Counted from the first letter of the whole stretch, positions 1 through 53,298 are shown. The stretch: DNA of 62,539 nucleotides, filler included, from Gemmatimonadota bacterium (GCA_003697105.1; 6 parts of 6 records of this genome joined end to end with filler, not necessarily neighbours in it), one strand, 5' to 3'. A program made the numbers and translations. The notes: generated from the sequence alone by a model not told the origin.

Positions 1-167
1 GGCATTATTCTTAAATCCTGAATAGTCGTTTCTAGGGGGATATTTGTCTCACATGATTCCAACTTTCTGATGAGGTAGCCTAGTTACAGAATCTATCTTG
101 GGATAAGTTTCTCTATAATCCATCCATCTTATATTCAACTCCAATTTTGAGGGATTAGGAGGAGATA

Positions 168-3100
168 GTGAGGCACTCATTATCGTATCTATTCATATAT
201 GTTTTAGTTTTGATACCCATCTCCTTATCTGCCCAGCAATCCCGAGACACGGCATTGCTGTGTACATTCGGCAATAAAGCGACAACCAATTGGGGCGATG
301 ATGATTATAACCAAGTGATTTTTATAGCGCTCCCTTCGGAAGCAAAAGCCCCGTTTTATGTGCGGATTTATGACCCAGATTGTTACGGCGCATTGGATGA
401 AGCCAACGGCACGTGGAATACTGTTACCGATTTCCGGGTCTATGGCGGCGCAGGCACCTACACCAACCCAAATGCCCGAAGTGTCTCCCCCCAAGAAGGG
501 CTACGCAGTGGAAATCTCCTAAAAGGCCAACTATTTGGTAATGAAGCCCGCTTTGACCAACAATGGTTTGTCTTAGGTCCGTTCTCCCCCACGGAAGGTG
601 AAATTATCGGAAACGAAATCCTGTTCAAGCTGGTGATTGAAGGTAAAGAAGGGGACGATGGAAATCTTTATGACCTCCAAATTAGCCAATCCGAAACCGT
701 ATTTTCCCCATACCCTAACGCTCGCTTGTTTGCCTATGAATTCACCTTTCAGTTGCCTCCCGAAGAAAATCGGGTCATGCAAATTCAATTATTACCGGAA
801 TCTACCGTCACCCAATTAGCACTTTATAATTTTGATTCCGATAAATTGAATAGCTTAACCCTTCGTATCCCCCAGAACCCACCCATCGTATTGGATGCCT
901 CTGGGGATAATACATGGGCGGTCACCCGGGTCGATGTGTCCGAGATGGAGCAAAATTTTTCGGTCAACTTCGGGAAAACAAGTTTTGGGAATAACGATAT
1001 CGTCTTTTATGCAGAAGATCAAAACGGGCGACCCATCCCATTACAATACCCTCTACCCATTGTCCACTTTCAGCAAGTAGAAACTGAGATTAAGCGCGAA
1101 CATGAATGCAATACGATCTTTTTTGATGCCTCGGCCTCAACCGACCCCAATGGCGATTTGTTGGATTATATTTGGGATTTTGGAGATGGCGCCCAAGCGG
1201 CAGGTGTAAGAGTTTCACACACCTATACCAAAAGCGGGGATTACCCCGTAATGCTAACCGTGATTGATAATTCCGGGGCAATTTGTGCCATTGCCAACGA
1301 TGTTGTATCGATCAATATCAACACACCCCCAATTGCAGATGCCGGACCCAATTTGACCGGTTGCCCCAATGAAACCATCCGGTTTAATGGCACGCGCTCC
1401 GTCGATCCCGATGGCGCCATTATTAGTTATGAGTGGGATTTTGGGGATGGTGAATCCGGCCGAGGTGCGACACCGATTCACGCCTATCGAATGCCCGGCA
1501 TGTACACCGTGACTTTGACAGTTACAGATAATTCGGCGACGTCCTGCAACGTGTCATCGGATCAAATCACTGTGAATGTCAATTCCCCGCCCGTCGCCAA
1601 TGCCGGACCCGATCAAACTGTCGGAACCACCACGGTCGTTTTTGATGGCACCGCATCTTATGACCCTGATAACCCGGGCGGCATGACGGGTAACGCCCTG
1701 ATCTACACCTGGGACTTTGGTGACGGTAGCCCGGGCAAACAAGGACCCACCCCATTCCATACATACCAAAAACCCGGTCAATACATTGTGACACTAACTG
1801 TCCAAGACCGCTCCGGTACAGAGTGCAATATCAGCACAGATACCATGATTTTAACCATCAACCAATCCCCTAAAGCAAATGCAGGTACAGACCTTGTAGG
1901 TTGCGCCGGAAAACCAATCACGTTTGATGGCTCCCGCTCCGTGGATGCGGATGGTTCCGTGGTCGAATATCAATGGGACTTTGGCGATGGCAATATCGGT
2001 GAGGGACCAAAACCCACCCACAGTTACGAACGTCCCGGGACGTACAACGCAACGCTAAGTGTGGTCGATAACACTGCCACCCTCAATAGCCGTGACACGG
2101 ATGTAGTAACCGTAACGATTAATCACCCCCCAATGGCAGATGCCGGGATAGATAAAATCGTCTGTGAAAACTCGCAAGTGGTCTTTGATGGTTCAAATTC
2201 ATTTGATTTAGATGGACATATTACCCGGTACGTCTGGGATTTTGGCGATGGAAGCAAAGGCGAAGGCGTTCGTCCGGTACATGTCTATACCAAACCGGGC
2301 AAGTACCCGGTAAAATTGACCGTTTATGACAACAGCAATACCGGTTGCGGGTTTTCTTCCGATGAAGTGACCATTACCGTCAATCAAATTCCGGTGGCAA
2401 ATGCCGGTGCAGATCAAACCGTGTGCAGTAGTACCGTTACCTTCGACGGCACAAAATCCGTCGATCCCGATGGGATAATCACCCAATACTTATGGGATTT
2501 TGGGGACGGAGCGAAAGGCGGTGGTCCTCGCCCCACACACGTTTACCCCGATGAGGGTACATACCTCGTTACACTTACCGTAAAGGATGATTCCGGCACA
2601 AATTGTAACTCCCATAGTGATGTAATGACCGTAGTAATCAACAAAGCACCCGTGGCGGATGCCGGGCCCGACCAGATTGTCTGTACCGGTTCTCCGGTAG
2701 CATTTAATGGGATTGGATCAACCGATTCGGATGGCGCAATCCAAAAATATATGTGGGATTTTGGGGATGGTACCCCCCAAGTGAGCGGAGCCCAAGCCAC
2801 CCATACTTACCAAAAAAGCGGAAATTACCGCATCATTCTAACCGTGACCGATAATTCTGGAACCAGTTGCCAAAATACCATCGATGACCTGATTGTCCGG
2901 GTCAACAATCCTCCCGTGGCGGAAGCCGGAACAGACAAACGGGGTTGTGTGGATGAAGCCATCCCGTTTGACGGCAGCGCCTCTTATGACCCCGACGGTG
3001 AAATCCGGCGCTATATCTGGGATTTTGGCGATGGTAGCCCGACGGTGGAATCCGTCAGCCCCGCGCATGTGTATGCCAGCCCCGGCACATACACCGCCAC

Positions 3101-5330
3101 ATTGACGGTCTATGACAATAGCGGTACCACCTGCAATAGCGATACCGATAAAATCGTCGTCGTGATTAACGAAATGCCAATTGCCGAAGCCGGCGAGGAT
3201 ATCCACACCTGTAATACCACGGTCACATTTGACGGCAGCCGCTCTGTGGACCCAGACGGCGGAAAATTAAGCTATCACTGGGATTTTGGCGATGGTTATA
3301 CCGGTAGCGGTCCGCGACCCACCCATACGTACCGCCAACCGGGGGTGTATCCGGTCACATTAACCGTGACCGATGATAGCGGTACCCGGTGCAATAATAA
3401 CTTTGATAACCTCACCGTGTTTATTAACCAACCCCCCATTGCCGATGCCGGCGAAGACCAAGTCGTCTGCCTGACAGACATCGTGGCATTCAATGGGAGT
3501 AAATCGGTTGATCCAGATGATGGCGTCTTAAATTATGTTTGGGACTTTGGAGATGGCTCACCTCCCAAAAGCGGCGTGGTTAGCCCCATCCACCAATACC
3601 AAAAAGGCGGAATTTACACCGTCACTTTGACGGTTACGGATGATTCCGGCGTGGCGTGTAATACCAGTATTGATAAAGTTACCGTCCAAGTTGCCGAAGC
3701 ACCTTCTGCAGATGCCGGTCCAGACCAAACCGTCTGTGCCAATACACAAGTTAAATTTGATGGATCAAAATCACGTGACCTTGACGGGCAAGTAAATGCA
3801 TTCTATTGGGATTTTGGTGATGGAAATACCGGCGGCGGCATGAATCCAACACACGTGTACAACCGTGCCGGAATCTACACCGTCACCCTCACTATTACCG
3901 GCGATGAAGTCGGGAATTGCACCAATAGTGATACGGATGTAATGACCGTCACCGTACATGAAGCACCTACGGCAGTTGCCGGTGAAGACCAAGTCGGTTG
4001 TGTCGGAGAACGTTTGGTTTTTGATGCAAGCCTTTCCAAAGCCGCCAGCCCCATCGAAACCTATTTGTGGGATTTTGGCGATGGAACACAGCAAAATGGT
4101 ATCATGGTCAATCATGCTTATACCAAACCCGGAACATATACCGTGAATCTAACGGTTCAAGATAATTCCGGTACGGAATGCAACCAAACCAGCGATAAAT
4201 TGACTGTCATCATTAACAACCCCCCTGTTGCCAATGCGGGGGAAGACATCAAAATTTGTATCAATGACCCCGTTAAATTTGATGGCACCGCCAGTGTGGA
4301 TCGAGACGGATTCATTACCTCGTATGAATGGGATTTCGGGGATGGTAACAAAGGACGGGGTGTAAATACCATCCACATTTATAAACAACCCGGCGTCTAT
4401 ACGGCATCATTGACCATTCGGGACAATTCAAATGTGGCGTGCAATGTGGCGAACGATACCCGCGTAATTACGGTCAACCAACCCCCCGTTGCCCAAATTG
4501 GGGATGAGCAGCAAACCGTTTGTGTCGGAGAATCGGTTCAGTTTAACGGCACATCCTCCCAAGACGCCGATGGGCAGATCACTAAATACGAATGGGATTT
4601 CGGGGATGGTAACAAAGGAAATGGGGAAAATACCAGCCACATCTACAAAAATCCCGGCACATATCAGGCAACATTGCGTGTTATTGATGATTCCGGGGTG
4701 TATTGCAGCGTTGGAACCGCCTCCACGACGATCATCGTCAACCAACCCCCGATTGCAGAAGCCGGGGCTGATAAAATTGCCTGCCCCAATGAAACGTTGT
4801 ATTTTGACGGCGCACAAAGTACCGATCTGGATGGGCGAATTGTCCGGTATGAATGGGATTTTGGTGATGGTACGCGCGGCAACCAAATTAAAACAAGCCA
4901 TGAGTATCTGGAACCGGGAACATACACCGTTACCTTGACAGTCACCGATGATTCCGGTACCGAATGCGCAACCGCCACAGACCAACTGACCGTGATTATC
5001 AATGAACCACCTTTGGCAGCCGTTACATTAGACGATATAACCGCCTGTGTCGGTTGTGCTCATGATGAAGTCTATTTTGATGCCTCACCATCGAAAGACC
5101 GAGAAGGCGGGCGGCTAAGCTTTCAGTGGGATTTTGGTGATGGAACAAAAGGGGTGGGAATGCGTCCAACACATACTTACACCGAACCCGGTGTGTACAA
5201 TGTTACGCTAACCGTCATTGATGACTCCGGCACAAAGTGTAACTATTCCACCATCAATATTACCGTAAATGCCAATCGAGCACCAACACCGGATATTCAA
5301 ATCCGTTCAGATGCCGGTAGTAAGCCTTAA
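168..5330 (+). CDS. Secreted surface protein: N-terminal ~300-aa domain plus 16 tandem Cys-containing PKD domains
   Basis: GTG start after AGGAGG; signal peptide (…ISLSA|QQ); 16 WDFGDG PKD signatures with H-x-Y-xx-PG-x-Y-x-V-x-L-x-V-x-D. Confidence 0.93.
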   Translation: MRHSLSYLFIYVLVLIPISLSAQQSRDTALLCTFGNKATTNWGDDDYNQVIFIALPSEAKAPFYVRIYDPDCYGALDEANGTWNTVTDFRVYGGAGTYTNPNARSVSPQEGLRSGNLLKGQLFGNEARFDQQWFVLGPFSPTEGEIIGNEILFKLVIEGKEGDDGNLYDLQISQSETVFSPYPNARLFAYEFTFQLPPEENRVMQIQLLPESTVTQLALYNFDSDKLNSLTLRIPQNPPIVLDASGDNTWAVTRVDVSEMEQNFSVNFGKTSFGNNDIVFYAEDQNGRPIPLQYPLPIVHFQQVETEIKREHECNTIFFDASASTDPNGDLLDYIWDFGDGAQAAGVRVSHTYTKSGDYPVMLTVIDNSGAICAIANDVVSININTPPIADAGPNLTGCPNETIRFNGTRSVDPDGAIISYEWDFGDGESGRGATPIHAYRMPGMYTVTLTVTDNSATSCNVSSDQITVNVNSPPVANAGPDQTVGTTTVVFDGTASYDPDNPGGMTGNALIYTWDFGDGSPGKQGPTPFHTYQKPGQYIVTLTVQDRSGTECNISTDTMILTINQSPKANAGTDLVGCAGKPITFDGSRSVDADGSVVEYQWDFGDGNIGEGPKPTHSYERPGTYNATLSVVDNTATLNSRDTDVVTVTINHPPMADAGIDKIVCENSQVVFDGSNSFDLDGHITRYVWDFGDGSKGEGVRPVHVYTKPGKYPVKLTVYDNSNTGCGFSSDEVTITVNQIPVANAGADQTVCSSTVTFDGTKSVDPDGIITQYLWDFGDGAKGGGPRPTHVYPDEGTYLVTLTVKDDSGTNCNSHSDVMTVVINKAPVADAGPDQIVCTGSPVAFNGIGSTDSDGAIQKYMWDFGDGTPQVSGAQATHTYQKSGNYRIILTVTDNSGTSCQNTIDDLIVRVNNPPVAEAGTDKRGCVDEAIPFDGSASYDPDGEIRRYIWDFGDGSPTVESVSPAHVYASPGTYTATLTVYDNSGTTCNSDTDKIVVVINEMPIAEAGEDIHTCNTTVTFDGSRSVDPDGGKLSYHWDFGDGYTGSGPRPTHTYRQPGVYPVTLTVTDDSGTRCNNNFDNLTVFINQPPIADAGEDQVVCLTDIVAFNGSKSVDPDDGVLNYVWDFGDGSPPKSGVVSPIHQYQKGGIYTVTLTVTDDSGVACNTSIDKVTVQVAEAPSADAGPDQTVCANTQVKFDGSKSRDLDGQVNAFYWDFGDGNTGGGMNPTHVYNRAGIYTVTLTITGDEVGNCTNSDTDVMTVTVHEAPTAVAGEDQVGCVGERLVFDASLSKAASPIETYLWDFGDGTQQNGIMVNHAYTKPGTYTVNLTVQDNSGTECNQTSDKLTVIINNPPVANAGEDIKICINDPVKFDGTASVDRDGFITSYEWDFGDGNKGRGVNTIHIYKQPGVYTASLTIRDNSNVACNVANDTRVITVNQPPVAQIGDEQQTVCVGESVQFNGTSSQDADGQITKYEWDFGDGNKGNGENTSHIYKNPGTYQATLRVIDDSGVYCSVGTASTTIIVNQPPIAEAGADKIACPNETLYFDGAQSTDLDGRIVRYEWDFGDGTRGNQIKTSHEYLEPGTYTVTLTVTDDSGTECATATDQLTVIINEPPLAAVTLDDITACVGCAHDEVYFDASPSKDREGGRLSFQWDFGDGTKGVGMRPTHTYTEPGVYNVTLTVIDDSGTKCNYSTINITVNANRAPTPDIQIRSDAGSKP

Positions 5331-5368
5331 ATAACATCAAACACTATCACCAGCAAATACATAGAGCT

Positions 5369-5408
5369 AACCTTGCGACGAGACCCTCCCCCCTCTCGCA
5401 AGGTTTTC
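5369..5408 (+). terminator. Hairpin (putative terminator/attenuator) between PKD gene and glycosyltransferase cluster
   Basis: AACCTTGCGA…TCGCAAGGTT stem followed by a short T run. Confidence 0.5.
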
Positions 5409-5413
5409 AATTA

Positions 5414-6385
5414 ATGAAGGCAATGAACATCATACCAACCTGCGATTTATCGATTATCATTCCTCTGCTCAATGAAGCCGATTCCTTGCACGAACTATAT
5501 GAACGCTGCCGGATAGAAGTCAATGCTCTGGATTTAAGCTATGAATTCATCTTTATTGATGATGGCAGTACCGACAATTCCGCCGCAATCATTCAAGAAC
5601 TCCATCAACAAGACCCCCACATTAAATTGATTCAATTCCGGCATAATTATGGCAAAGCGGCAGGTCTCGCCATCGGATTTGAAGCCGCCAACGGCGCAAT
5701 CGTGATTACAATGGATGCCGACCTACAAGATGACCCCGCCGAAATTCCAAATTTAATTGCCAAAATCAATGACGGGTGGGATTTGGTCTCCGGTTGGAAG
5801 AAAAAACGCAAAGACCCCCTCACAAAACGGTTACCCTCCAAAGTGTTTAATTATGTAACCGCAAAAGTCACCGGTTTAAAAATCCATGACGCCAATTGTG
5901 GACTCAAAGCGTACCGTTATGAGGTTGCCAAAACGGTGTATCCCTATTTATACGGGGAATTGCACCGTTATATCCCCGTCTTAGCACATATGGAAGGCTT
6001 CCGGGTAACAGAAACGGTTGTGGTACACCATCCCCGCAAATATGGCATTTCCAAATATGGCATGTGGCGGTTTTTTTCCGGATTTTTTGATTTGACGACG
6101 GTTGTCTTTCTGAACCGGTACACCAAACGTCCTCTCCATTTTTTCGGAATTTTGGGATTAATCACGTGGGCCACCGCCTCTTTAATTGCTTTGTACTTCT
6201 TTTGGGTCTGGCTAAACGAAGGCGCCTTACGGGTACGCCCAATGCTCCTCTTTGCCGGATTTTTAGCCGTCATTGGCGTGCAATTTTTCTCGATGGGCTT
6301 ATTGGGCGAAATGATCACCCGTTTCCGGCAAACCCCCCACACGGCAGATTATCTCATCAAAAATCGATTAGGATTCACCAAATGA
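5414..6385 (+). CDS. GT2 glycosyltransferase, polyprenyl-phosphate (DPM1/ArnC/GtrB-like) type with C-terminal TM helices
   Basis: IIPLLNE, DDGSTD, NYGKAA, MDADLQDDP, GELHRYIP motifs; two C-terminal hydrophobic segments. Confidence 0.93.
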   Translation: MKAMNIIPTCDLSIIIPLLNEADSLHELYERCRIEVNALDLSYEFIFIDDGSTDNSAAIIQELHQQDPHIKLIQFRHNYGKAAGLAIGFEAANGAIVITMDADLQDDPAEIPNLIAKINDGWDLVSGWKKKRKDPLTKRLPSKVFNYVTAKVTGLKIHDANCGLKAYRYEVAKTVYPYLYGELHRYIPVLAHMEGFRVTETVVVHHPRKYGISKYGMWRFFSGFFDLTTVVFLNRYTKRPLHFFGILGLITWATASLIALYFFWVWLNEGALRVRPMLLFAGFLAVIGVQFFSMGLLGEMITRFRQTPHTADYLIKNRLGFTK

Positions 6386-7086
6386 AAACCGTCATCTTAG
6401 CCGGTGGATTCGGAACCCGCTTACGTTCGGAAGTCGCCGACCGCCCCAAACCCATGGGACTCATTGCCGGAAAACCCTTTTTGCAGTACCAACTTGAGTA
6501 CCTCTATTCTTTTGGCTTAACGGAATTTATTCTCTGTGTGGGCTACAAAGCCGATCAAATTATGGATTTTTTCGGCGATGGCAGCTCGTTTGGGATACAG
6601 ATCGATTACGCCCGCGAAGAAAAACCGCTGGGTACTGCTGGCGCACTAAAAAACGCCGGCTTAAATGAACCGTTTTTAGCCCTAAATGGCGATTCCTTTT
6701 TGCGAGTCGATATAACACAGGTACTCACATTTTACCAGAAAGTACACGCACCCGTAATCGTGTGCCGGTATGTAACCGATGCGTCGCGATATGGCGCCGT
6801 CCAATTTGATGCCCACCAGCGGATTATCGCTTTTCAAGAAAAAGCGAAGGCGCATGGCGCCGGTTGGATCAACGCCGGCATATATGTGCTCAATCCGGAT
6901 TTGATGATGACAATCCCACCCCACCAAAAGGTATCCATTGAGCAGGAAACTTTCCCGGCATATCTGGAGCGCGGAATGTACGCCTTCCCTTCGGAGGATT
7001 ATTTCATCGATATTGGCACGCCCCAAAGTTACCAGCAAGCACAGCGAGATGTTGATTACCTTAGCCCTTGGAGAAAAATACCATGA
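6382..7086 (+). CDS. Sugar-phosphate nucleotidyltransferase, HddC-like (heptose-1-P guanylyltransferase)
   Basis: ILAGGFGTRL, PKP, PLGTAGAL, INAGIY, FIDIGTP; ATG at 6382 overlaps upstream stop (ATGA); next to HddA-like kinase. Confidence 0.85.
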   Translation: MKTVILAGGFGTRLRSEVADRPKPMGLIAGKPFLQYQLEYLYSFGLTEFILCVGYKADQIMDFFGDGSSFGIQIDYAREEKPLGTAGALKNAGLNEPFLALNGDSFLRVDITQVLTFYQKVHAPVIVCRYVTDASRYGAVQFDAHQRIIAFQEKAKAHGAGWINAGIYVLNPDLMMTIPPHQKVSIEQETFPAYLERGMYAFPSEDYFIDIGTPQSYQQAQRDVDYLSPWRKIP

Positions 7087-8087
7087 TTTACCGGAGTAAA
7101 GCGCCTTTACGAATCAGTTTTGCCGGTGGCGGCACCGATGTGTCACCCTATCCCGAAGAACGAGGAGGCGTCGTACTAAATGTCACCATTGATAAATACG
7201 CGTATGCCTCTTTGAAACCGCGTGATGATCGCAAAATGTCTATCCACTCCTTGGATTACGACATCGTCGCCAAATACAATATGGATGAAGAATTGACTTA
7301 CAATGGAGAACTCGACCTAGTTAAAGCGGTCGCGCGGAATCTGGAAGTCGATCAAGGGTTTGATCTGTTTATTCATAGTGATGCCCCGCCCGGCTCCGGA
7401 TTGGGATCATCTTCCACCATGTGTGTCGCTCTGGTTGGCGTGTTTCAACAGTGGCTAAATCTACCGTTAACACATTATGACATTGCCGAAGTAACCTACC
7501 ACGCGGAGCGAATCGATTTACAAATCACCGGTGGCCGCCAAGACCAATACGCTGCGACATTCGGCGGCTTTAATTTTATTGAATTCCTGAAAGATGCCAC
7601 CGTTGTCAATCCCTTGCGAATCCGACCGGAATATATCAACGAACTACACTACCGGCTTTTACTCTGCTATACCGGCAAAACCCGGCTTTCCGCCAATATC
7701 GTAGCGAATCATTCCAATGCGTTTCGCCGGAAGGAAAAAACAGTTGTAGAGGCACTCGACCAGACGAAAGCGTTGGCAATCGACATGAAAAATTGCCTGT
7801 TACGGGGTGAATTAGACTATTTTGGCGAATTACTCCACCATGCTTGGTTACACAAAAAACAGTTTAACGACCAGATCAGCAATGCCTATATTGATACGTT
7901 ATATGATACGGCTCGCAACAATGGCGCCGTGGGAGGTAAAATCCTCGGTGCAGGGGGTGGCGGCTATCTGCTGTTGTATTGCCCTTTTGATAAAAAGCAC
8001 ATTATTGCCAAGCAGTTAGAAGCGCTGGGTGGACAGATTGTGGAGTTTAGTTTCGAGTTTCAGGGATTGCAAACATGGCAGATTTAA
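7083..8087 (+). CDS. hddA: GHMP-family sugar kinase, HddA-like (D-glycero-D-manno-heptose-7-P kinase)
   Basis: APLRISFAGGGTD, PPGSGLGSSS, GGRQDQYA, GKILGAGGGG; ATGA overlap at 7083. Confidence 0.85.
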   Translation: MIYRSKAPLRISFAGGGTDVSPYPEERGGVVLNVTIDKYAYASLKPRDDRKMSIHSLDYDIVAKYNMDEELTYNGELDLVKAVARNLEVDQGFDLFIHSDAPPGSGLGSSSTMCVALVGVFQQWLNLPLTHYDIAEVTYHAERIDLQITGGRQDQYAATFGGFNFIEFLKDATVVNPLRIRPEYINELHYRLLLCYTGKTRLSANIVANHSNAFRRKEKTVVEALDQTKALAIDMKNCLLRGELDYFGELLHHAWLHKKQFNDQISNAYIDTLYDTARNNGAVGGKILGAGGGGYLLLYCPFDKKHIIAKQLEALGGQIVEFSFEFQGLQTWQI

Positions 8088-8818
8088 ATCGCCCGCTGGG
8101 ACAACCTGCCGCCTATCATGAATTGATTGTAACGCGACGGTTGGCAGTGTTGCAACAGTTTGAAGGTTTTCTGGACGCATCAAAAACGCTGGTGGATGTG
8201 GGCTGCGGGAATGGGGCGTCCCTACTGCAATTAGCACATCACTTTCGTTTGTGTCATGGTATTGATATTTCCGCCGCCAACCAACATGCGTTTGAAGCCG
8301 AAGCCCGCCGCCGGAATATCCAAAATTGTACCTTCTCTTTAGCCAATATCGACCAGTGGGTAGAAGTTCCAAAGCAGAAGTATGACCGGCTCATCTGCTT
8401 TGAGGTCATTGAGCACGTGCAAGATGACCAACATGCCGCAAAGATGCTCTACCATCTGGTAAAACCCGGCGGCTTGGCGGCAATTTCCGTCCCCAATAAA
8501 TGGTGGATTTTTGAGACCCACGGCGCACGGTTGCCCGTCCTCAAATGGAATCGCGTCCCGTTTTTTTCATGGTTGCCAACCCCGATTCATGAGCGGTTTG
8601 CCAATGCGCGCATTTACACCGTCTCGCGCATTACACGGCTATTGAAAAATGCCGGTTTTACCCTTGTGGATTGGCATTACATCACGGCGCCAATGGATCG
8701 TGTCACATGGAAACCCTTGCAAACGGTTCTCCGGCGTACGCTGTTCGCACAGCACACCACATCGATCCCGATGCTCTCAACCTCAATCATGGTCTTTGCC
8801 GAACGAAAGATGGACTAA
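8075..8818 (+). CDS. Class I SAM-dependent methyltransferase
   Basis: LVDVGCGNG motif I, FEVIEHV, KPGG. Confidence 0.88.
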   Translation: MADLNRPLGQPAAYHELIVTRRLAVLQQFEGFLDASKTLVDVGCGNGASLLQLAHHFRLCHGIDISAANQHAFEAEARRRNIQNCTFSLANIDQWVEVPKQKYDRLICFEVIEHVQDDQHAAKMLYHLVKPGGLAAISVPNKWWIFETHGARLPVLKWNRVPFFSWLPTPIHERFANARIYTVSRITRLLKNAGFTLVDWHYITAPMDRVTWKPLQTVLRRTLFAQHTTSIPMLSTSIMVFAERKMD

Positions 8819-8822
8819 TGCG

Positions 8823-9950
8823 ATGAAAATCTATTTTGTAGCCCCGGCATACCCTTTACGGGGTGGCATTGTGCATTACGTGGCGATTTTGCATAATCTG
8901 CTGAAAGCGCGCGGGCATGACTCCAAAATTTTATCCTTCACCGTGCAGTACCCTAAATTTCTATTTCCGGGTAAAACGCAGGAGGAAGCCAGTAAAGAGA
9001 ATCTGCCCGTCGATGCCGAACCGGTATTTAGCTCCATCAATCCGTTGAGTTGGTTCGCCACATTTTGGAAGATCAAGCACTACCAACCGGATATGGTGAT
9101 TTTCAAATATTGGATGCCCTTTTTTGCACCCGGTTTTGGCACCGTCTGTCTGTTGACCCGGTGGTTTACCAAAACGAAGATTTTATTCATTTGTGATAAC
9201 ATTATTTCCCATGAATCCCTGCCGGGGGAAACCCTGCTAACTCGGATGCTCCTGCGTTTGGTGGATTTTTTCATCGTTCAATCGGATGCGGTCAAAGCCG
9301 ATTTGTTGCGGCTGCACAAAAATGCCGTTTACCGCGAAGTCGCCCACCCCATCTATGATGTGTTTGAATCCCAACCCTTAACGCCGGATGAGGCACGAGA
9401 GCAGTTTAATCTAAAACCCGGCATCCCGGTGGTGCTCTTTTTTGGGTTCATCAAACCCTACAAAGGGTTGCATGTGTTAATCGACGCCATCCCGCAAGTA
9501 CGGGCAGAGCTACCGGACGTTCAATTTCTGATTGCCGGAGAATTCTACGGCGACCGGGAAGCGTACCTCGAGCAAATTCAAAACCTGAATGCCGGTGATG
9601 CCTTACAATTACATGATGATTACATTCCCAACGAGCAAGTGCAAGCGTTTTTCCGTGCCGCAGATGTTGTGGTATTGCCCTACATTTCGGCCACACAAAG
9701 CGGGATCATCCAGATCGCCTATAGTTTTGATAAACCGGTGATTACCACCCGGGTGGGCGGCTTGCCGGAGGTCGTTCTGGATGGAAAAACTGGTTTCGTG
9801 GTGCCTCCGCAAGATAGCGTCGCCTTGGCAAAAGCGATTATCCGGTTTTTTCAGGAAAACCACGCGCCGAACTTTATTGAAAATGTCCGCGAAGAAAAGA
9901 AAAAATACTCCTGGCAACCGCTAATTGAAGCCATTGAAACCTTTTCGTAA
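8823..9950 (+). CDS. GT4 (GT-B) glycosyltransferase
   Basis: PLRGGI, FFGFIKPYKG, PYISATQSG, VGGLPE; start reassigned to ATG 8823. Confidence 0.92.
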   Translation: MKIYFVAPAYPLRGGIVHYVAILHNLLKARGHDSKILSFTVQYPKFLFPGKTQEEASKENLPVDAEPVFSSINPLSWFATFWKIKHYQPDMVIFKYWMPFFAPGFGTVCLLTRWFTKTKILFICDNIISHESLPGETLLTRMLLRLVDFFIVQSDAVKADLLRLHKNAVYREVAHPIYDVFESQPLTPDEAREQFNLKPGIPVVLFFGFIKPYKGLHVLIDAIPQVRAELPDVQFLIAGEFYGDREAYLEQIQNLNAGDALQLHDDYIPNEQVQAFFRAADVVVLPYISATQSGIIQIAYSFDKPVITTRVGGLPEVVLDGKTGFVVPPQDSVALAKAIIRFFQENHAPNFIENVREEKKKYSWQPLIEAIETFS

Positions 9951-9968
9951 CGCAAACAACCCCAGCCC

Positions 9969-10814
9969 ATGACCCCTACCCCCAAAGTCAGCATTGTCGT
10001 ATTGACATGGAACGATAAAGCCAACGTGTTGGAGTGTCTGGAATCCCTGTCACAGGTGGATTACCCGAACCTAGAGGTGATTGTCTCGGACAATGGCTCT
10101 ACAGATGGGAGCATCGAAGCCATCCGGGCAACGTTTCCAAATGTCATTCTGATCGAAAATGGTGAGAATTTAAAATTTTCACGCGGTAATAATGTCGGCA
10201 TACAGTACGCGCTGGAGCACGGCGCCGATTATGTTCTGTTGCTAAACAATGATACGATTGTCGATCCGCATTTCATCACAGAAATGGTCGAAGTAGGTGA
10301 AACTGACCCGACAATTGGCATGTTAGGACCCAAAATCTACTACCATACCGAACCCAACGTGATCTGGTATGCCGGAGGCGAAATTTCCCTGTGGAAAGGC
10401 TTAGCTTGGCACACCGGCATTCGCGAGCCGGACACCGGGCAGTTTGATGAAATTCGGGACGTCGGTTATATTACTGGGTGTGCCCTGATGGTCAAACGCA
10501 ACGTTATCGAAAAGATCGGAATGCTAGACCCCACTTACGTCGCTTATGCGGAGGATTCCGATTTTTCACTCCGGGCGCACCGAGCCGGTTACCGGCTGGT
10601 TTACGTCCCCTCCGCCAAGCTCTGGCACAAAATCGGTGGAGCATGGGGTACGGTCACCCGACGCAAAATTTGGAATAAATTCAAAAGTCATCTGATTTTG
10701 TTCCGCCGGTATGCCCCTCCGCTAGCGTGGTTTACCACCATCCCGCTCTTTTTCGTTCTGGATGGTTTTCGTATCCTCTTCCTGATTGCGAAGGGAAAAA
10801 TCCGCAACACCTGA
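9969..10814 (+). CDS. GT2 glycosyltransferase (WbbL/rhamnosyltransferase-like subfamily)
   Basis: VLTWN, DNGSTDGS, LLNND, GCAL, EDSDF, WHK. Confidence 0.9.
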   Translation: MTPTPKVSIVVLTWNDKANVLECLESLSQVDYPNLEVIVSDNGSTDGSIEAIRATFPNVILIENGENLKFSRGNNVGIQYALEHGADYVLLLNNDTIVDPHFITEMVEVGETDPTIGMLGPKIYYHTEPNVIWYAGGEISLWKGLAWHTGIREPDTGQFDEIRDVGYITGCALMVKRNVIEKIGMLDPTYVAYAEDSDFSLRAHRAGYRLVYVPSAKLWHKIGGAWGTVTRRKIWNKFKSHLILFRRYAPPLAWFTTIPLFFVLDGFRILFLIAKGKIRNT

Positions 10815-10835
10815 CTAGAAAAAAAGCCATTCATA

Positions 10836-11678
10836 GTGTCACCCAAAATTTACCTGATCATTCTCAACTGGAACGGCAGACACATGTTACCCGAGTGTCT
10901 CCAAACCGTCTTTCAACTGGATTATCCGAATGTTGAGGTGATGATCGTTGATAATGCCTCGACCGATCACTCGCGGCAATATGTAACGGAGCATTTCCCA
11001 CAGGTAATCTGGATTCAAAATCAGGAAAATTTGCGCTTTGCCGAGGGAAACAACGTCGGTATTCGCTATGCTTTAGAACACGGCGCAGACTACATCTTTT
11101 TATTGAACAACGATACCACCATTGCCCCGGAGGCGCTCACGGAATTGGTTCAGGTACTCAAATCAGACCCGACGATTGGCGTGGCAGGTCCCAAAATTTA
11201 CTATGCGGATGAACCCGACCGGCTCTGGTTTGCGGGCGGGCGCACTAATTTAATATGGGGGCATTTTTGGCATCGGGGAATCCGCCAACGGGATCACGGA
11301 CAATTTGACCAGATTGAACCCGTCGATTTTATCACCGGATGTGCCATGCTCGTACGCGCCTCAGTGATTCAAACCGTGGGATTGATGGATCCGCACTATT
11401 TCATCTACGGCGAAGACGTTGACTGGTGCCTGCGGATGCGGCAACACGGTTTCCAGTGTGTGTATGTCCCCTCAGCTACCGTCTGGCATAAAATTTCAGC
11501 CAGTAGCGGTCAGGTTTCGGTATTCAAAATCCAGCACCGGCTGAAAAGTCAGTTTCAACTCCTATGGCGATTTGCCCCTCGCTGGGCACTGTTTACAACA
11601 ATTCCCCTCTTTTTGATTGGAGATAGCTTGCGGATCATCTACCTAATTCTCATCAGAAAAATAAGGAATACCTCATGA
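10836..11678 (+). CDS. GT2 glycosyltransferase, paralog of the preceding gene
   Basis: ILNWNG, DNASTD, LLNND, GCAM, EDVDW; shares NNVGI-YALEHGADY, FTTIPLF and KIRNT with the upstream GT2. Confidence 0.9.
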   Translation: MSPKIYLIILNWNGRHMLPECLQTVFQLDYPNVEVMIVDNASTDHSRQYVTEHFPQVIWIQNQENLRFAEGNNVGIRYALEHGADYIFLLNNDTTIAPEALTELVQVLKSDPTIGVAGPKIYYADEPDRLWFAGGRTNLIWGHFWHRGIRQRDHGQFDQIEPVDFITGCAMLVRASVIQTVGLMDPHYFIYGEDVDWCLRMRQHGFQCVYVPSATVWHKISASSGQVSVFKIQHRLKSQFQLLWRFAPRWALFTTIPLFLIGDSLRIIYLILIRKIRNTS

Positions 11679-12001
11679 AAATTTTATTGATCGGCGCCGA
11701 CGGACAACTCGGTACGGATTTCCGCAAAATTTTAGCAGGTGAACCGGAGGAAGTGATCCCCAGCACCATCGCAGATATGGATATTACCGATATTCGAGCC
11801 GTCCAAAAGCGATTGCAAGCCGTAAAACCGGATGTGGTGATCTCTACCGCCGCAGAAAATCGAGTGGATTATGTGGAAGATCATCCAAAACAGGCATTTG
11901 CGGTCAACGCTTTGGGACCCCGCAATTTAGCCGTTGCATGCCGTAAAATTGGGGCGATATTGGTCTCTTACAGTACAGATTATGTCTTTGATGGGCAAAA
12001 A
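11675..12001 (+). CDS. rfbD: dTDP-4-dehydrorhamnose reductase (truncated by contig end)
   Basis: GADGQLG, AFAVNA, STDYVFDG motifs. Confidence 0.9.
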
Positions 12002-22150: not shown

Positions 22151-25100
22151 TCATTTTAAGAGTAACATTCGGCGGCTTTCGGTGGTATCACCGGTTTGCA
22201 ACGTATAGAGATAAAGACCGCTGGAAACTCCCAAACCGTTATTATCCGTACCATCCCATGTGATTTGATATGTGCCAGTCGATTGCTGGTCAAGGTCGAT
22301 CAATGTACGAATCAGATGACCTGAAATATCGTAAATACTAAGATTGACCGGCATCGCCTGTGGCAGTTGGTAGCGGATCGTAGTTTGCGGATTAAACGGA
22401 TTCGGATAGTTTTGATACAACGTCACTTGTTGAGGGACATGTAAGGTCAGGTCTGTTTGTTCCACATCTACGGTTTGGTCACTGCCGTAGATCACAAAGC
22501 GGTCAATAAACCAGCCCCGATGGTCATCTGTATTCGTGCTAGCAAACCGGAATTTGACTTGAATCCACTGTCCCATAAACGCACTCAAATCAAAGCGGAT
22601 TTGTTCCCATCCCTCACTGGAGCCGGTAAAACCGGGTTGGCCCGCTAATCCCACAACGGAATTGTCGGGATAACCGCCTTCCGGTACGACAATCACGCCT
22701 GCCGGATTCGCCGCAGTAGAAATCCGCACATGACCTCCATCCCAACCGGGATTTGTTTCATACCAATGGTGTAGAATTAGATGATAATCCAGTAAAGAAT
22801 CAATCGGCACATAAAAGGCGGGGCTCACAAGGTCTGAGTTTGCTTGAGGTTGGTAATTTCCATCCAGATTAAAGCCCCATAGATACTCGCCTTCGTACGC
22901 TTCTGCGGGACCACCTGCGGGTGTCGGGCTACCATACTCCCAACCACATCCGCCATTGGCGCACTCTTCCGTAAAATTGCCATCATCGGCTTCAAAACCT
23001 TGAATGCCGGCAAGGGCAAAATTGACCATCACCGGCTGATTTTCCGGTACGGTGGCTTGAATCATTCGCATTTCATGGGTGGGGTCTGCGGCGTAAACCT
23101 CGTAGGTGTATGATCCCGGGCAGATAATCTCATAAAATCCCTCGCTATCGGTGAAGACTGGGGGCAACTCAACACCATCTTGTACCGCCATCACCGCCAC
23201 ACCTGCCAAATGCACCTGATTCATATCCCAGACATAGCCTTGAATCCGTCCAGAGGGTAATGGGTTCAGGGGAATATCCACTTGCAAGGTCTCGTCTTCT
23301 GCTACGGTCAACATCCCGGACTCAAAAATTTCGTAACCAAAATGTTGGGCTGTAATTTGGTATTCACCGGCACCCGGCACATAAATCCGGTAGAAACCCG
23401 TTTCATCAGCTTGGACGGAATATTGATCGACTAAGGTGACCCTCGCCGGAACCGGATCGCCGTTTTCACTATTGGTGATGGTGCCCTCAATCGCTTCACC
23501 GGAAAGCGCTTCAATGGTGCTGATATATGGAATAAAATTGTGCCCGTCCACCACAAGGTCATAAGTGCCCATTTCAGAGGCATGGGTGTAGATGGTGGCA
23601 TCGCCATTCTGGTTGGTACGTCCAGTGTAAAATTCGTCTTGCTCTATGTTGGTGATTGCTACGGTGGCACCCCAAACTGGATTTCCGTCGCTGTCTTCCA
23701 CGTGGATTATCGTTTGGGAATCCCCAATGGGAAAGATCGGGTCATGTGTCACCACAAATTCTGTAGGGGTTTCGGTGTAAATCTCACACGTGGGATCACC
23801 CATCAGGGCAAAGTGATTGTAGGTATCTTCCGTGTAAATATCGGGTAACGGATAATCAATCACAACCACTTCTTTGCCCCAAAGCAGCGCACCCCCCATC
23901 GTAAAAATACCCTGTTCAAACATCGCCTCATAAATTCCCCGGTCGAGTGAATCCCGGCGACGGGCATACGGTTCCGGGGTAGTTACTTGCGATCCGGCAA
24001 TGGATCCAATCGAGCCTTCTGGGTCGGTAGAACTACCATCGCGCATCCAGCGGACACAAAAATCGTTGTTGTTATAGTTACACTTCCCGCAAGTCAGCCA
24101 CGTGACAAAGGGGTATTTCCCATCGGGGTCGATCATTTCCATCGTGATGCCATATTCCCCGATGTAACCTCGGTAGTTCAGAAACGCCCGTCCGTCATTG
24201 ACATTATCTACCACATCTCCCGTGTGGCCATTGGTGCGATATTCATTGATCTCAATATAACCGCCGGCTTCCTGCAACAACCGGGTCCCCACTTCATCAT
24301 ATTTGGTTTCAAAAGAGGATTCCTGCGAGCAGACCAAGGTTGCCCGCTTGTTCCAATCGGTACCATCTACCACCGGATTTTGTTCGTATTGAAGTGTCCG
24401 GTTGACCATTGTCAGCAAAGAAAGCGGTGAATTGGTGCAGGGAAAACGCCCGATAATCACATCTAATTTTTCATCGTCACCTTCCAAGTACCCATACGGG
24501 TTATCCCCGAGATATCCCGTCGTCGTCCAGCCGGGCAGTACATTACCATCCCCAATTAATAGGATGTATTCGGGACGGGTAGCCGGATCATCATACACAC
24601 TTTGAATATAAGCTTTAATTTCGTTATTCGAGTCTCCCGTCTCAGAGAACGGCGCCACATACGTCCGAATACCTTTTTTATTTTTCCATGCCGCAAAGGG
24701 ACCCAGCGCACCGGCTAACGCATCCGGGGAGATAATTAAAAACGACAACCCATCCGGCGCTTCCCGTAAACCCGAAAATAAATGAGGTTTAAGCGCCTCA
24801 TAATTGACAATCGCCTTCCGATAAAAGTCCTCAAATGTGGGAGAAGGTATTGACAGAATTGATTTTGGATTCTGGGTGCTAGTACCCGTAGTTTGAATTT
24901 CAATCTGCAAATCGGTGTAAACCCGTACATCTTTCGTCACTGGATTTACCTGAATCGGACATACTTGGAGAGCAACAACCCGCACATCGCGCCAGATTTC
25001 CGGCGAACCGAGTGTTGCCAGTTCTGCGGGATAGAACGCATCCCGCTCATAGATATGCGAATCCAAAAAATGCAGTTCCGGCTCGATGTAATCCGAATAG

Positions 25101-25450
25101 GGCAGAACATCTAAACCCGGTAAAATCTCATACGCACCGGCACGGACAGAAATTTCGGCATTTGCAGTTGGGGGGATGGCAATCAGGGTGGAAATCATCG
25201 GTAACCGGGGTGCTCCCGGTTCAGAAAGATGAGGCGTTTGAGGGAAGCTTATTTTGGCATACTCAAGTTGATCGATAGAGACAAAATCAAGGTTCACCCC
25301 GGCAACATCCACTCTTAGTGTTGTACCATTTAAGTTGGCTTCCGTAACCGTCACCTGAGGCGAAGCGGGTATCTCACTGGTCAGCGGCAACCAATCCGCA
25401 AACACCACCGGTGATAAAAAAATAAGAATAATGGTAATCCAATAGCGCAT
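22151..25450 (-). CDS. Secreted C25 (gingipain-like) protein with propeptide, carboxypeptidase-regulatory-like Ig domains, jelly-roll domain and FlgD/T9SS-like CTD
   Basis: GAPRLP propeptide, WKNKKG, YILLIGD, IGRFP, LMGDP; C-terminal QNYPNPFNPQTTIRY…WDG…SSGLY. Confidence 0.88.
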   Translation of the reverse strand: MRYWITIILIFLSPVVFADWLPLTSEIPASPQVTVTEANLNGTTLRVDVAGVNLDFVSIDQLEYAKISFPQTPHLSEPGAPRLPMISTLIAIPPTANAEISVRAGAYEILPGLDVLPYSDYIEPELHFLDSHIYERDAFYPAELATLGSPEIWRDVRVVALQVCPIQVNPVTKDVRVYTDLQIEIQTTGTSTQNPKSILSIPSPTFEDFYRKAIVNYEALKPHLFSGLREAPDGLSFLIISPDALAGALGPFAAWKNKKGIRTYVAPFSETGDSNNEIKAYIQSVYDDPATRPEYILLIGDGNVLPGWTTTGYLGDNPYGYLEGDDEKLDVIIGRFPCTNSPLSLLTMVNRTLQYEQNPVVDGTDWNKRATLVCSQESSFETKYDEVGTRLLQEAGGYIEINEYRTNGHTGDVVDNVNDGRAFLNYRGYIGEYGITMEMIDPDGKYPFVTWLTCGKCNYNNNDFCVRWMRDGSSTDPEGSIGSIAGSQVTTPEPYARRRDSLDRGIYEAMFEQGIFTMGGALLWGKEVVVIDYPLPDIYTEDTYNHFALMGDPTCEIYTETPTEFVVTHDPIFPIGDSQTIIHVEDSDGNPVWGATVAITNIEQDEFYTGRTNQNGDATIYTHASEMGTYDLVVDGHNFIPYISTIEALSGEAIEGTITNSENGDPVPARVTLVDQYSVQADETGFYRIYVPGAGEYQITAQHFGYEIFESGMLTVAEDETLQVDIPLNPLPSGRIQGYVWDMNQVHLAGVAVMAVQDGVELPPVFTDSEGFYEIICPGSYTYEVYAADPTHEMRMIQATVPENQPVMVNFALAGIQGFEADDGNFTEECANGGCGWEYGSPTPAGGPAEAYEGEYLWGFNLDGNYQPQANSDLVSPAFYVPIDSLLDYHLILHHWYETNPGWDGGHVRISTAANPAGVIVVPEGGYPDNSVVGLAGQPGFTGSSEGWEQIRFDLSAFMGQWIQVKFRFASTNTDDHRGWFIDRFVIYGSDQTVDVEQTDLTLHVPQQVTLYQNYPNPFNPQTTIRYQLPQAMPVNLSIYDISGHLIRTLIDLDQQSTGTYQITWDGTDNNGLGVSSGLYLYTLQTGDTTESRRMLLLK

Positions 25451-35273: not shown

Positions 35274-35852
35274 TCAGACGAGTCGTTGCAAAACTGACTT
35301 TAATCGCGGATAATCATCGGAGAGTAGTTGGCTGAGTTCTTTTCCGACCTGAACGCGGTACTGTGGATTCGGATGTAACGGTGCGGTTTGACGAATGACG
35401 GCGGCAATGAGTTCGTCTGTGGGGACATTCGGGTTGGCTAAAATCATCCGTAAAAAGGCTAGATTTTCGCTGATTTTCTGGATTTCCCCGGTGGATAGCA
35501 GGTAAACACGGGCGTGTAAGCGTGGGGGCAGTGGCGGCGTATGGTAATAGACCTGACCTCCCTGCTGGTATCCAATGATGGAAATCTCAAAATTAGTGCG
35601 TTGGAGTTCAAACAGATGGGGCATTTTTGCATCGAGTTCATCCAAAGGGATACCATACGCCACTGGTTGGCGGTTCGCGTCAACCCCCGTGGTCATCACG
35701 TTATAAACGATGCCCAACACCTGACGGTCTGGGTCCATGCGCACCCAACAGCCAAAGGCGGGTGGTTGGATATCCCGCCGGTGGGGAAGTTGGGCGACCA
35801 CCCGGTTACTACTACTTTCAATGATTTCGCCGACATAATCCGCGGGTGTCAT
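35274..35852 (-). CDS. Stand-alone HAS-barrel domain protein (NurA/HerA-associated)
   Basis: VGEIIESS…PPAFGCWV…PPLPPRLHARV…GKELSQLL-DDY-RL pattern; ATGA overlap with nurA. Confidence 0.78.
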   Translation of the reverse strand: MTPADYVGEIIESSSNRVVAQLPHRRDIQPPAFGCWVRMDPDRQVLGIVYNVMTTGVDANRQPVAYGIPLDELDAKMPHLFELQRTNFEISIIGYQQGGQVYYHTPPLPPRLHARVYLLSTGEIQKISENLAFLRMILANPNVPTDELIAAVIRQTAPLHPNPQYRVQVGKELSQLLSDDYPRLKSVLQRLV

Positions 35853-37042
35853 CGTGTGGGCCTTTGCTTAGATAGTGCTTTACGGGTTGGTGATTTGTGG
35901 ATTTGTTTCTGAAGTAGCGTATTCTCAATAAGTTGGTAAAAGAGTTCGCGGTCGGGTCCCCGTACAACCGCCTGTTCGTGGGCTTCTATGAGTGCTAAAG
36001 GATACCCGAACCCTTTCTCTACTTGATCCAACGTGACCGCATGAATCAAATCAATCAAATGCGGTTGGTGGCTCATCCAATGGGGGAATTCGAGCCGCGC
36101 GATCTCGGTCATCCCACCAAATTGCCCCACATTCAGATAAAAAAAATCAATTTGGGGATGCCAGGAGTCTGAATTCATCGGCTTAAATGCGTTACTAAAA
36201 ATAGCAGACCGTTCTCCCGGTCGTAAAATCTCGGCGAAGAGGCGGGCATCCCGGACGGCTTCCAGTTGGGCACACTCCCGCTCCGGCGGTAAATCCGGTT
36301 TTTGGCAGTTTTGACAATTCTCATGTGGTACCGGACAGGCATACACACGTAAACTTTTGATGAATTCACTGTGACGCGGGTCACTTTTGTAAGCAAAAAT
36401 GGGGGTCTGATGGGTTTCAAACTGGTCAAACACTCGTCGCAACTGATCGACTAATTGAAGGCGGAGGGTCTCCCGTTTTTCTTCCAGATACCACATGATC
36501 AAGGTGCCATCCGCTATTGCCAGACGCGGTGAGGTTGTCGGGTATTCAGCCGCCAGTTGCCACAGGGCTTCTAGCTCCATGACACCCCGCCGGGCACTTA
36601 CTTCATCGGAGCTGATAGTCCGGCTACCTGTCTCTGTAGGAATCTGTAAATCTTCTTGTCGATAATACATGTGCGGCGCGCTCCACAACCGGGCAGACGC
36701 GGAAGCGCCGTATTGCAAAACCACATTGCCGATATTGATCAAGAAATAAGGTACAATCTCATGATGGCTGGGGAAAATTTGCGATCCATCCGTGGCGAAT
36801 AGGGTATAGTCAGAGGTCACAGACTTTGGCAGGCGGTGTGTGTCCAACGATGAATCGATTTGGGCAATTAGCCACGTTGTCTTGCTCTGATTCACCCGTT
36901 GCTGGAAGGCTTCAAAATTTTGGCGAGCCGCCTCATATAATTGGAGTGCCAAATCCAGTTGAAGGCGACTTTCGTTACCGTCAATTGCCTTCTGCGGGTC
37001 CATTTCTTGGATTTGGCGTTGCAACTCCACCAGATCAAGCAT
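35849..37042 (-). CDS. nurA: NurA-family nuclease
   Basis: ATDGSQI, DGTL, ARLEFP-W, GYPLALIEAHEQAVV; Cys cluster CPVPHENCQNC…C. Confidence 0.9.
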   Translation of the reverse strand: MLDLVELQRQIQEMDPQKAIDGNESRLQLDLALQLYEAARQNFEAFQQRVNQSKTTWLIAQIDSSLDTHRLPKSVTSDYTLFATDGSQIFPSHHEIVPYFLINIGNVVLQYGASASARLWSAPHMYYRQEDLQIPTETGSRTISSDEVSARRGVMELEALWQLAAEYPTTSPRLAIADGTLIMWYLEEKRETLRLQLVDQLRRVFDQFETHQTPIFAYKSDPRHSEFIKSLRVYACPVPHENCQNCQKPDLPPERECAQLEAVRDARLFAEILRPGERSAIFSNAFKPMNSDSWHPQIDFFYLNVGQFGGMTEIARLEFPHWMSHQPHLIDLIHAVTLDQVEKGFGYPLALIEAHEQAVVRGPDRELFYQLIENTLLQKQIHKSPTRKALSKQRPTR

Positions 37043-53198: not shown

Positions 53199-53298
53199 NN
53201 NNNNNNNNNNNNNNNNNNNNNNNNNNNNNNNNNNNNNNNNNNTTAATTAATTAANNNNNNNNNNNNNNNNNNNNNNNNNNNNNNNNNNNNNNNNNNNN
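53199..53298. other. Artificial contig spacer
   Basis: N-run + TTAATTAATTAA + N-run. Confidence 0.99.

Follow-up and report, generated by a model that had tools for sequence, protein, structure and literature searches.

PKD arrays count among the most frequent components of bacterial and archaeal surface proteins, and they tend to be pictured as flexible strings of beads. The gene described here raises the question of whether the junctions between such beads can be covalently locked. It lies in a window of 62,539 nucleotides (the whole stretch of DNA that was analysed, filler included) from a Gemmatimonadota bacterium (GCA_003697105.1), a contig string with 440 N, and sits on a contig of 12,001 bases that makes up window positions 1-12001. 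The open frame has 1,720 codons at 168-5330 on the + strand (GTG start, stop included) and encodes a 1,720-amino acid (aa) PKD-array protein that is probably secreted, as its signal-like N-terminus suggests. It carries 16 PKD repeats, nearly every one with a Cys close to its start and another in a late loop. The analysis suggested to us, with a probability that we put at roughly 0.78, that each junction is bridged within the chain by a disulfide between the early Cys of repeat n, hereafter early(n), and the late Cys of repeat n+1, hereafter late(n+1), which would make the protein a rod of stapled PKD domains. Covariation, a structure model and analogy with the GhpA stem all bear on this reading. 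In homologues phi is 0.97 for early(n)/late(n+1), whereas the pairing within one domain, early(n)/late(n), reaches 0.25 and that of late(n) with early(n+1) comes to -0.09.

The protein contains 33 Cys. The early Cys (hidden Markov model (HMM) column 14, just after AGxDQxV) is present in 15 of the 16 repeats, G486 taking its place in repeat 3 (DQTVGTTT), and the late Cys (HMM column 75, DxSGTxC) is likewise found in 15 of 16, with N640 in repeat 4 (NTATLNS). Besides a CVGC motif in repeat 16 there is no further Cys inside the repeats, and the remaining two, C32 and C72, are in the N-terminal head. The early/late pattern with its exceptions had been described in the original prediction, and on re-reading every coordinate given there proved correct. 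Late(n) and early(n+1) are separated by 26-27 residues, and the predicted early(n)-late(n+1) pairs by 146-154. Most repeats carry both Cys, so this sequence alone leaves room for a classical arrangement, in which early(n) pairs with late(n) inside the domain or late(n) with early(n+1), 26 residues away. Both missing Cys fall on the same junction, for which the chance is about 1 in 15 within this one protein, and this is weak evidence.

Covariation of the two cysteine positions

The homologue set was taken from the 120 best matches, with the window protein and an identical copy left out, and comprised 119 proteins with 1,813 junctions. Repeats were aligned by hmmalign to a profile built from the window protein's 16 repeats, and a junction was kept only if the gap between its two repeats was -8 to +12 residues. 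Both early(n) and late(n+1) occur at 603 junctions and neither at 1,185, with early only at 12 and late only at 13, which makes 1,788 of the 1,813 junctions concordant (phi 0.969). The corresponding values are 0.252 for the same-domain pair early(n)/late(n), -0.087 for early(n)/late(n-1), the neighbours 26 residues apart, and 0.110, 0.365 and -0.099 for the late Cys at offsets -2, +2 and +3. When each protein is treated as a stratum, offset +1 has a Mantel-Haenszel odds ratio of 1,579, and no other offset exceeds 3.4.

Because relatives are not independent, changes were also counted on a tree. A FastTree phylogeny was made for 69 of 121 proteins, those of 1,590-1,670 aa in which the number of repeats detected was exactly 15; the other 52 were dropped because the orthology of their junctions was unclear. 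Fitch changes counted per junction came to 29 for the early Cys, 17 for the late Cys and 32 for the joint state. For the offset +1 pair, 14 of the 17 late-Cys changes share a branch with a change of the early Cys, against 3-4 at three control offsets.

A full-library search with repeats 5-7 yielded 139 further representatives. Among them are giant arrays unrelated to the window family, and 55 proteins longer than 2,300 aa were picked for having both Cys in at least half of their domains, a choice by which they test the offset only. They were scored with a widened late window to catch misaligned ends, because 149 apparently early-only domains were alignment artefacts in which the late Cys had been pushed into the end insert. 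At 1,750 junctions both partners are present 1,702 times, neither 23 times, early only 20 times and late only five times, and the Cochran-Mantel-Haenszel chi2 reaches 182 for offset +1 but never exceeds 3.1 for another offset. These giants (e.g., P0141 and P0251) follow the same offset-+1 rule as the window protein, with Cys at HMM columns 14 and 73/75. They differ from it in having 20-79 repeats, in being type IX secretion system (T9SS) cargo and in being without the head of the window family; all four that were scanned are canonical PKD_4 arrays, and two of the four end in a CHU_C type IX signal.

The genome also contains two paralogues, labelled C96 (L006:5469-10226, - strand, a 1,586-aa frame) and C22 (L007:5789-10411, - strand, a 1,541-aa frame). 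The C96 paralogue repeats the pattern of the window protein, including a Cys-free 3/4 junction and a CNGC end. In the C22 paralogue the Cys pattern is mixed, and 11 of 11 junctions are concordant with early(n)/late(n+1); the late Cys is missing from its first repeat, and C-x5-C stands in its last.

Set against these data, the classical pairing is hardly credible. In addition to the low phi values for both of its forms, not one of 1,944 giant domains is devoid of both its early and its late Cys, although both partners are missing at 23 junctions, and in the structure model (below) a G strand of 10 residues separates the Cys pair of a single domain. The pairing of early(n) with late(n+1) that the original prediction proposed is thus supported by the joint gain and loss of the two positions in homologues, the reverse of the independent loss that was named there as refuting it, and the homologue covariation, the tree and the giant arrays together far exceed chance. 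What fell was the accompanying view that the architecture is unusual for PKD proteins: at least one early(n)/late(n+1) pair occurs in 113 of the 119 family members and in 99 of the 139 further representatives.

Geometry and layout of the predicted staples

An AlphaFold2 (AF2) model of repeats 2-5, computed from a 23-row alignment, has a mean predicted local distance difference test score (pLDDT) of 92.1 and a predicted template modelling score (pTM) of 0.64. In it the early Cys (model residue 14) comes directly after strand A' (11-13) and ahead of strand B (18-20), and the late Cys (model residue 75) lies between strands F (59-69) and G (77-86), directly before the latter. As the chain crosses the sandwich seven times, the A'-B turn would form the C-terminal pole of a domain and the F-G loop its N-terminal pole. 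Because the two Cys of one domain would sit at opposite poles, early(n) and late(n+1) are expected to face each other across the junction. The earlier statement that the end of strand A' of domain n lies next to the F-G loop of domain n+1 fits this strand order, with the two Cys a full G strand apart within a domain. Together with VIA-align comparisons, the model has the seven-strand beta-sandwich of a PKD domain. The layout of the gene and its product is as follows.

168..5330, + strand: the whole PKD-array gene (open frame; the protein on record as P0002 is identical)
168..233, + strand: probable Sec signal peptide, aa 1-22, with a hydrophobic core and then SLSA/QQ (from reading the sequence)
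234..1061, + strand: N-terminal all-beta head, aa 23-298, which defines the family and carries C32 (261-263) and C72 (381-383) (homologue alignment)
1062..5276, + strand: 16 tandem PKD repeats, aa 299-1703, each of 86-93 aa (Pfam, repeat profile and AF2)
1284..1286, + strand: C373, late Cys of repeat 1, which has no PKD partner upstream; C32 is a candidate partner (suggested by co-occurrence in the subgroup)
1623..1625, + strand: G486, the non-Cys early position of repeat 3 (repeat alignment)
2085..2087, + strand: N640, the non-Cys late position of repeat 4, with G486 the sole unstapled junction (repeat alignment)
5046..5057, + strand: C1627-V-G-C1630 in the A'-B turn of the last repeat, a predicted local disulfide (alignment; ends of the paralogues)
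5277..5327, + strand: C-terminal tail of 17 aa without a recognisable sorting signal (sequence; Pfam scan)

In the proposed rod, the Cys in the A'-B turn of domain n would meet the F-G-loop Cys of domain n+1 and form a disulfide across the junction. The predicted pairs are 314-460, 399-553, 579-727, 666-813, 753-901, 839-989, 927-1075, 1015-1164, 1101-1251, 1190-1338, 1278-1425, 1364-1513, 1452-1600 and 1539-1691. The resulting disulfide loops would each overlap the next. The shortest covalent path would then run from late(n) through 26-27 residues to early(n+1), across the S-S bond to late(n+2), and so on. At every second junction it would take in the G strand, the linker and strands A/A', and nothing else. 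The topology suggests a stiff cable that would barely lengthen even with unfolded domains.

The junction between repeats 3 and 4 is, on its sequence, without the covalent lock, and it had been proposed as a built-in hinge. The data lend this no support. Members of the window protein's subgroup share the absence of Cys at junction 3/4, but the residues found there belong to the family's commonest unstapled pair, Gly or Ala at column 14 with Asn at column 75 (352 + 75 = 427 of 1,828 junctions); in the main 15-repeat family most junctions are unstapled. The pLDDT is 93-95 at this junction against 92 at stapled ones, so there is no dip, and this score gauges confidence rather than flexibility. With one staple missing, the other of the two interleaved covalent paths would still span the junction.

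At the C-terminal end, the last domain has no downstream partner, and a local C1627-C1630 pair would cap it. Among 180 proteins whose last repeat ends no more than 60 aa from the C-terminus, the terminal repeat lacks the early Cys in 146, has two Cys in 16, one in 17 and three in one. This agrees with the part of the original prediction in which the terminal CxxC self-pairs; for the alternative that it is redox active we found no evidence. Nine members with 15-16 repeats (e.g., P0078, P0080 and P0096) have a single Cys in an F-C-G-G-A-H-D-like motif of the terminal repeat, with no obvious partner, and P0091 and P0101 have the same kind of motif with extra Cys in that repeat.

At the N-terminal end, C32, C72 and C373 are what remains after the 14 junction pairs and the CxxC. 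All six subgroup members that retain the head have an N-terminal Cys (column 32 or 38) together with late(1), and the main family has neither; in P0053 a sole N-terminal Cys accompanies late(1) and the total is an even 24. We tentatively propose that C373 is bonded to C32 of the head and that C72 is left free. The count of 33 stands, as does the expectation that an odd number may leave one Cys free, with C72 as the candidate.

Fragments of GhpA were the top multi-domain Foldseek/VIA-align matches to the four-domain model (Z 12.2-13.9, root mean square deviation (rmsd) 4.0-6.3 Å, 309-315 of 354 residues, seven fragments), and the model has the extended geometry of a GhpA-like tandem immunoglobulin (Ig)-like rod. 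In the preprint on GhpA, the grappling-hook protein of Aureispira sp. CCB-QB1 (bioRxiv 10.1101/2024.01.29.577165), cryo-electron microscopy shows intramolecular disulfides between nearby Ig-like domains, such as Cys2988-Cys3140 with a spacing of 152 residues, and the protein is described as glycosylated, with a T9SS sorting domain, and as assembling into a seven-stranded bundle with hydrogen bonds as its lateral contacts. When model residues 1-354 are aligned to GhpA 2893-3234, Cys2988 comes to lie some 3 residues or fewer from the early column of domain two and Cys3140 equally near the late column of domain three, an approximate placement that uses range ends only. GhpA (PDB 9g8b, 9flu, 9flp, 9flw and others) thus resembles the window protein as a tandem Ig-like rod with a similar pair spacing (152 vs 146-154). 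It differs in its sorting domain, its heptameric state and its glycosylation, whereas the window protein has canonical PKD_4 domains, a different head and no sorting tail. By analogy, the window protein most likely works like the GhpA stem.

The GhpA bundle also raises the idea of an intermolecular staple, from the early Cys of one chain to the late Cys of a staggered neighbour in a bundle or lattice, since covariation alone does not tell intra-chain from inter-chain contacts. We regard this as very unlikely. In GhpA the disulfides are described as intramolecular and the lateral contacts as hydrogen bonds; the strand order of the AF2 model already lets the two poles meet within one chain; and first repeats without a late Cys, together with last repeats that have no early Cys or a self-pairing one, fit an in-chain register.

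The PKD domains of the clostridial collagenases ColG and ColH (PDB 4aqo, 4u6t, 4jgu and 9lqj) belong to the same domain family (sequence E 1e-25) and superpose on the model with VIA-align Z of 15.4-16.4 and rmsd of 0.7-1.5 Å over 85-86 residues. ColH differs in having no Cys at the early or late column in the printed alignment. Other long beads-on-string surface proteins meet a similar demand by other means. The BIg adhesins SiiE and MpIBP, which need stiffness or strength, are rigidified by Ca2+ at their linkers, and Gram-positive adhesins obtain strength from isopeptide or ester bonds inside their domains, whereas in the window protein a disulfide would lie across the junction.

Possible oxidation of the paired cysteines

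Several observations weigh against the stapled rod. Twenty-five of the 1,813 junctions in the homologues are discordant; in at least nine of the 13 late-only cases the early window is empty or holds one or two letters, because the start of the domain was left unaligned. The placement of the poles was read from the AF2 strand order, not from S-S distances. No GhpA chain was retrieved by phmmer against the PDB with a di-repeat (E <= 0.001) or with the giant P0198 (E <= 0.01), so that the likeness to GhpA is one of structure. The window protein has its N-terminal Cys at column 32, the five other subgroup members have theirs at column 38, and because of this mismatch the C32-C373 pair stays tentative. 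DsbB, VKOR, DSBA and Thioredoxin_4 gave no match in the genome, which is 96.85% complete, and DsbB, VKOR and DSBA gave none in two genomes of the same class, the only ones among 40 relatives. Finally, exported proteins show no excess of even Cys counts: among 2,918 open reading frames (ORFs), 238 of 533 exported-like products have an even number, compared with 652 of 1,337 cytoplasmic-like ones, in a count that used a home-made signal-peptide rule and no positive-control genome. The idea of this test reportedly comes from Dutton and colleagues (2008).

The last two points bear on whether the paired Cys, although they co-evolve across the junction, stay as thiols or bridge a metal in a cell without a disulfide-forming pathway. 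Calcium stiffens the collagenase PKD linker. The titles of 4aqo and 4u7k record Ca2+ in collagenase PKD structures, at junctions that bind it, which lends the metal version some appeal. Two thiolates alone, however, make a poor metal site, and a terminal CxxC or C-x5-C is what would be expected if an otherwise unpaired thiol must be capped. Most family members are Proteobacteria, which as a rule have Dsb systems. The organism itself meets oxygen, as the two heme-copper oxidase genes of its genome show (cytochrome bd was not found in it), and the rod has a probable signal peptide. In GhpA, moreover, real disulfides are reported at equivalent positions. Taking both sides together, we consider free thiols or a bridging metal unlikely and retain the disulfide-stapled rod.

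The genome does contain 12 Thioredoxin_2 matches and two DsbD_TM matches. One Thioredoxin_2 match lies outside the window, within a frame of 395 aa that a single in-frame TGA interrupts (G000:C6:39350-39628, - strand), and the product is a possible extracytoplasmic thiol oxidoreductase. A bolder proposal would be that the overlapping staples make a practically inextensible cable, with about 16 bonds per molecule in three paralogues, that is built without DsbA, DsbB or VKOR; in this full form we think it a long shot. If true, it would mean that an unrecognised route oxidises surface proteins outside the cytoplasm, for which the thioredoxin-fold protein with the in-frame TGA would be a candidate.

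Family, surroundings and meaning

The array is a canonical one: PKD_4 (PF18911) matches 16 stretches of the protein with E = 0 and 1352 bits, against a curated cut-off of 27, PF00801 scores 699 bits, and a WDFGDG anchor recurs 16 times at spacings of 86-92 aa. Por_Secre_tail and CHU_C are not among the Pfam matches of the 1,720-aa protein (P0001) at E <= 0.001. The protein is a member of an unnamed family with a conserved head of about 300 aa and 12-20 PKD repeats, e.g., the "PKD domain-containing protein" of Thiorhodococcus, Mesorhizobium and Skermanella, and like them its homologous head runs straight into the PKD array. It shares 29-48% identity with 59 aligned family members; some columns of the head, G13, D47, D55 and W111 among them, do not vary, and many family matches cover 92-99% of its length.

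The head, of roughly 277 aa in this protein, has no sequence match in Pfam (E <= 10), NCBIfam or the PDB, and VIA-align wide and Foldseek searches with a 450-residue model returned mainly PKD/Ig matches. ESM Atlas gave a weak LipL32 lead (0.91), which was not confirmed, and its matches to the head are stand-alone Bacteroidota proteins in clusters of about 305-326 aa. A stand-alone head domain, of 323 aa and 35% identity, is also encoded in a Flavobacteriales metagenome-assembled genome (L001:9908-10876, + strand), where it adjoins a PD40 + PKD protein. As for function, we would guess at a stiff spacer of the surface or matrix, or at an adhesin.

Downstream on the same contig are glycosyltransferase, nucleotidyl-transferase, GHMP-kinase and methyltransferase genes, with a glycosyltransferase cluster at 5414-11678. 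A functional link between this cluster and the PKD-rod gene found no support, because the three paralogues of the genome have unrelated neighbours: a CarboxypepD_reg protein lies next to one of the other two, and a 1,982-aa TPR protein and a PKD-FGE-sulfatase protein lie next to the other. A scan of genome contigs for a conserved gene neighbourhood found one locus only. Elsewhere in the window, 22151-25450 (- strand) encodes a gingipain-like Peptidase_C25 with a propeptide, CarboxypepD_reg domains and a Por_Secre_tail, from which it follows that the organism has type IX secretion cargo. Two ORFs at 41275-42201 and 42554-43336 (+ strand) match AcrB profile positions 335-624 and 771-1020 and may be one gene broken by a frameshift or by sequence gaps. 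After a NurA-domain nuclease gene (E 1.2e-31) at 35849-37042 (- strand) comes an ORF of 192 aa that matches no family, and a 1,664-aa ORF at 53247-58241 (- strand) has no Pfam family at E <= 1e-5.

Disulfides between domains are already in print for GhpA, and a 2026 preprint on archaeal S-layers proposes, without being able to confirm them, inter-domain disulfides between Ig-like domains. For PKD arrays, a search of open-access PubMed Central and bioRxiv found nothing in print on inter-domain disulfides. What is new here is how general the feature is, the pairing rule itself and its contrast to a genome in which no known disulfide machinery was found. The rule allows locked PKD junctions to be read from sequence alone, and it yields predictions on how stiff and how long the arrays are and how well they withstand force or proteases, across a widespread family and the giant T9SS cargo.

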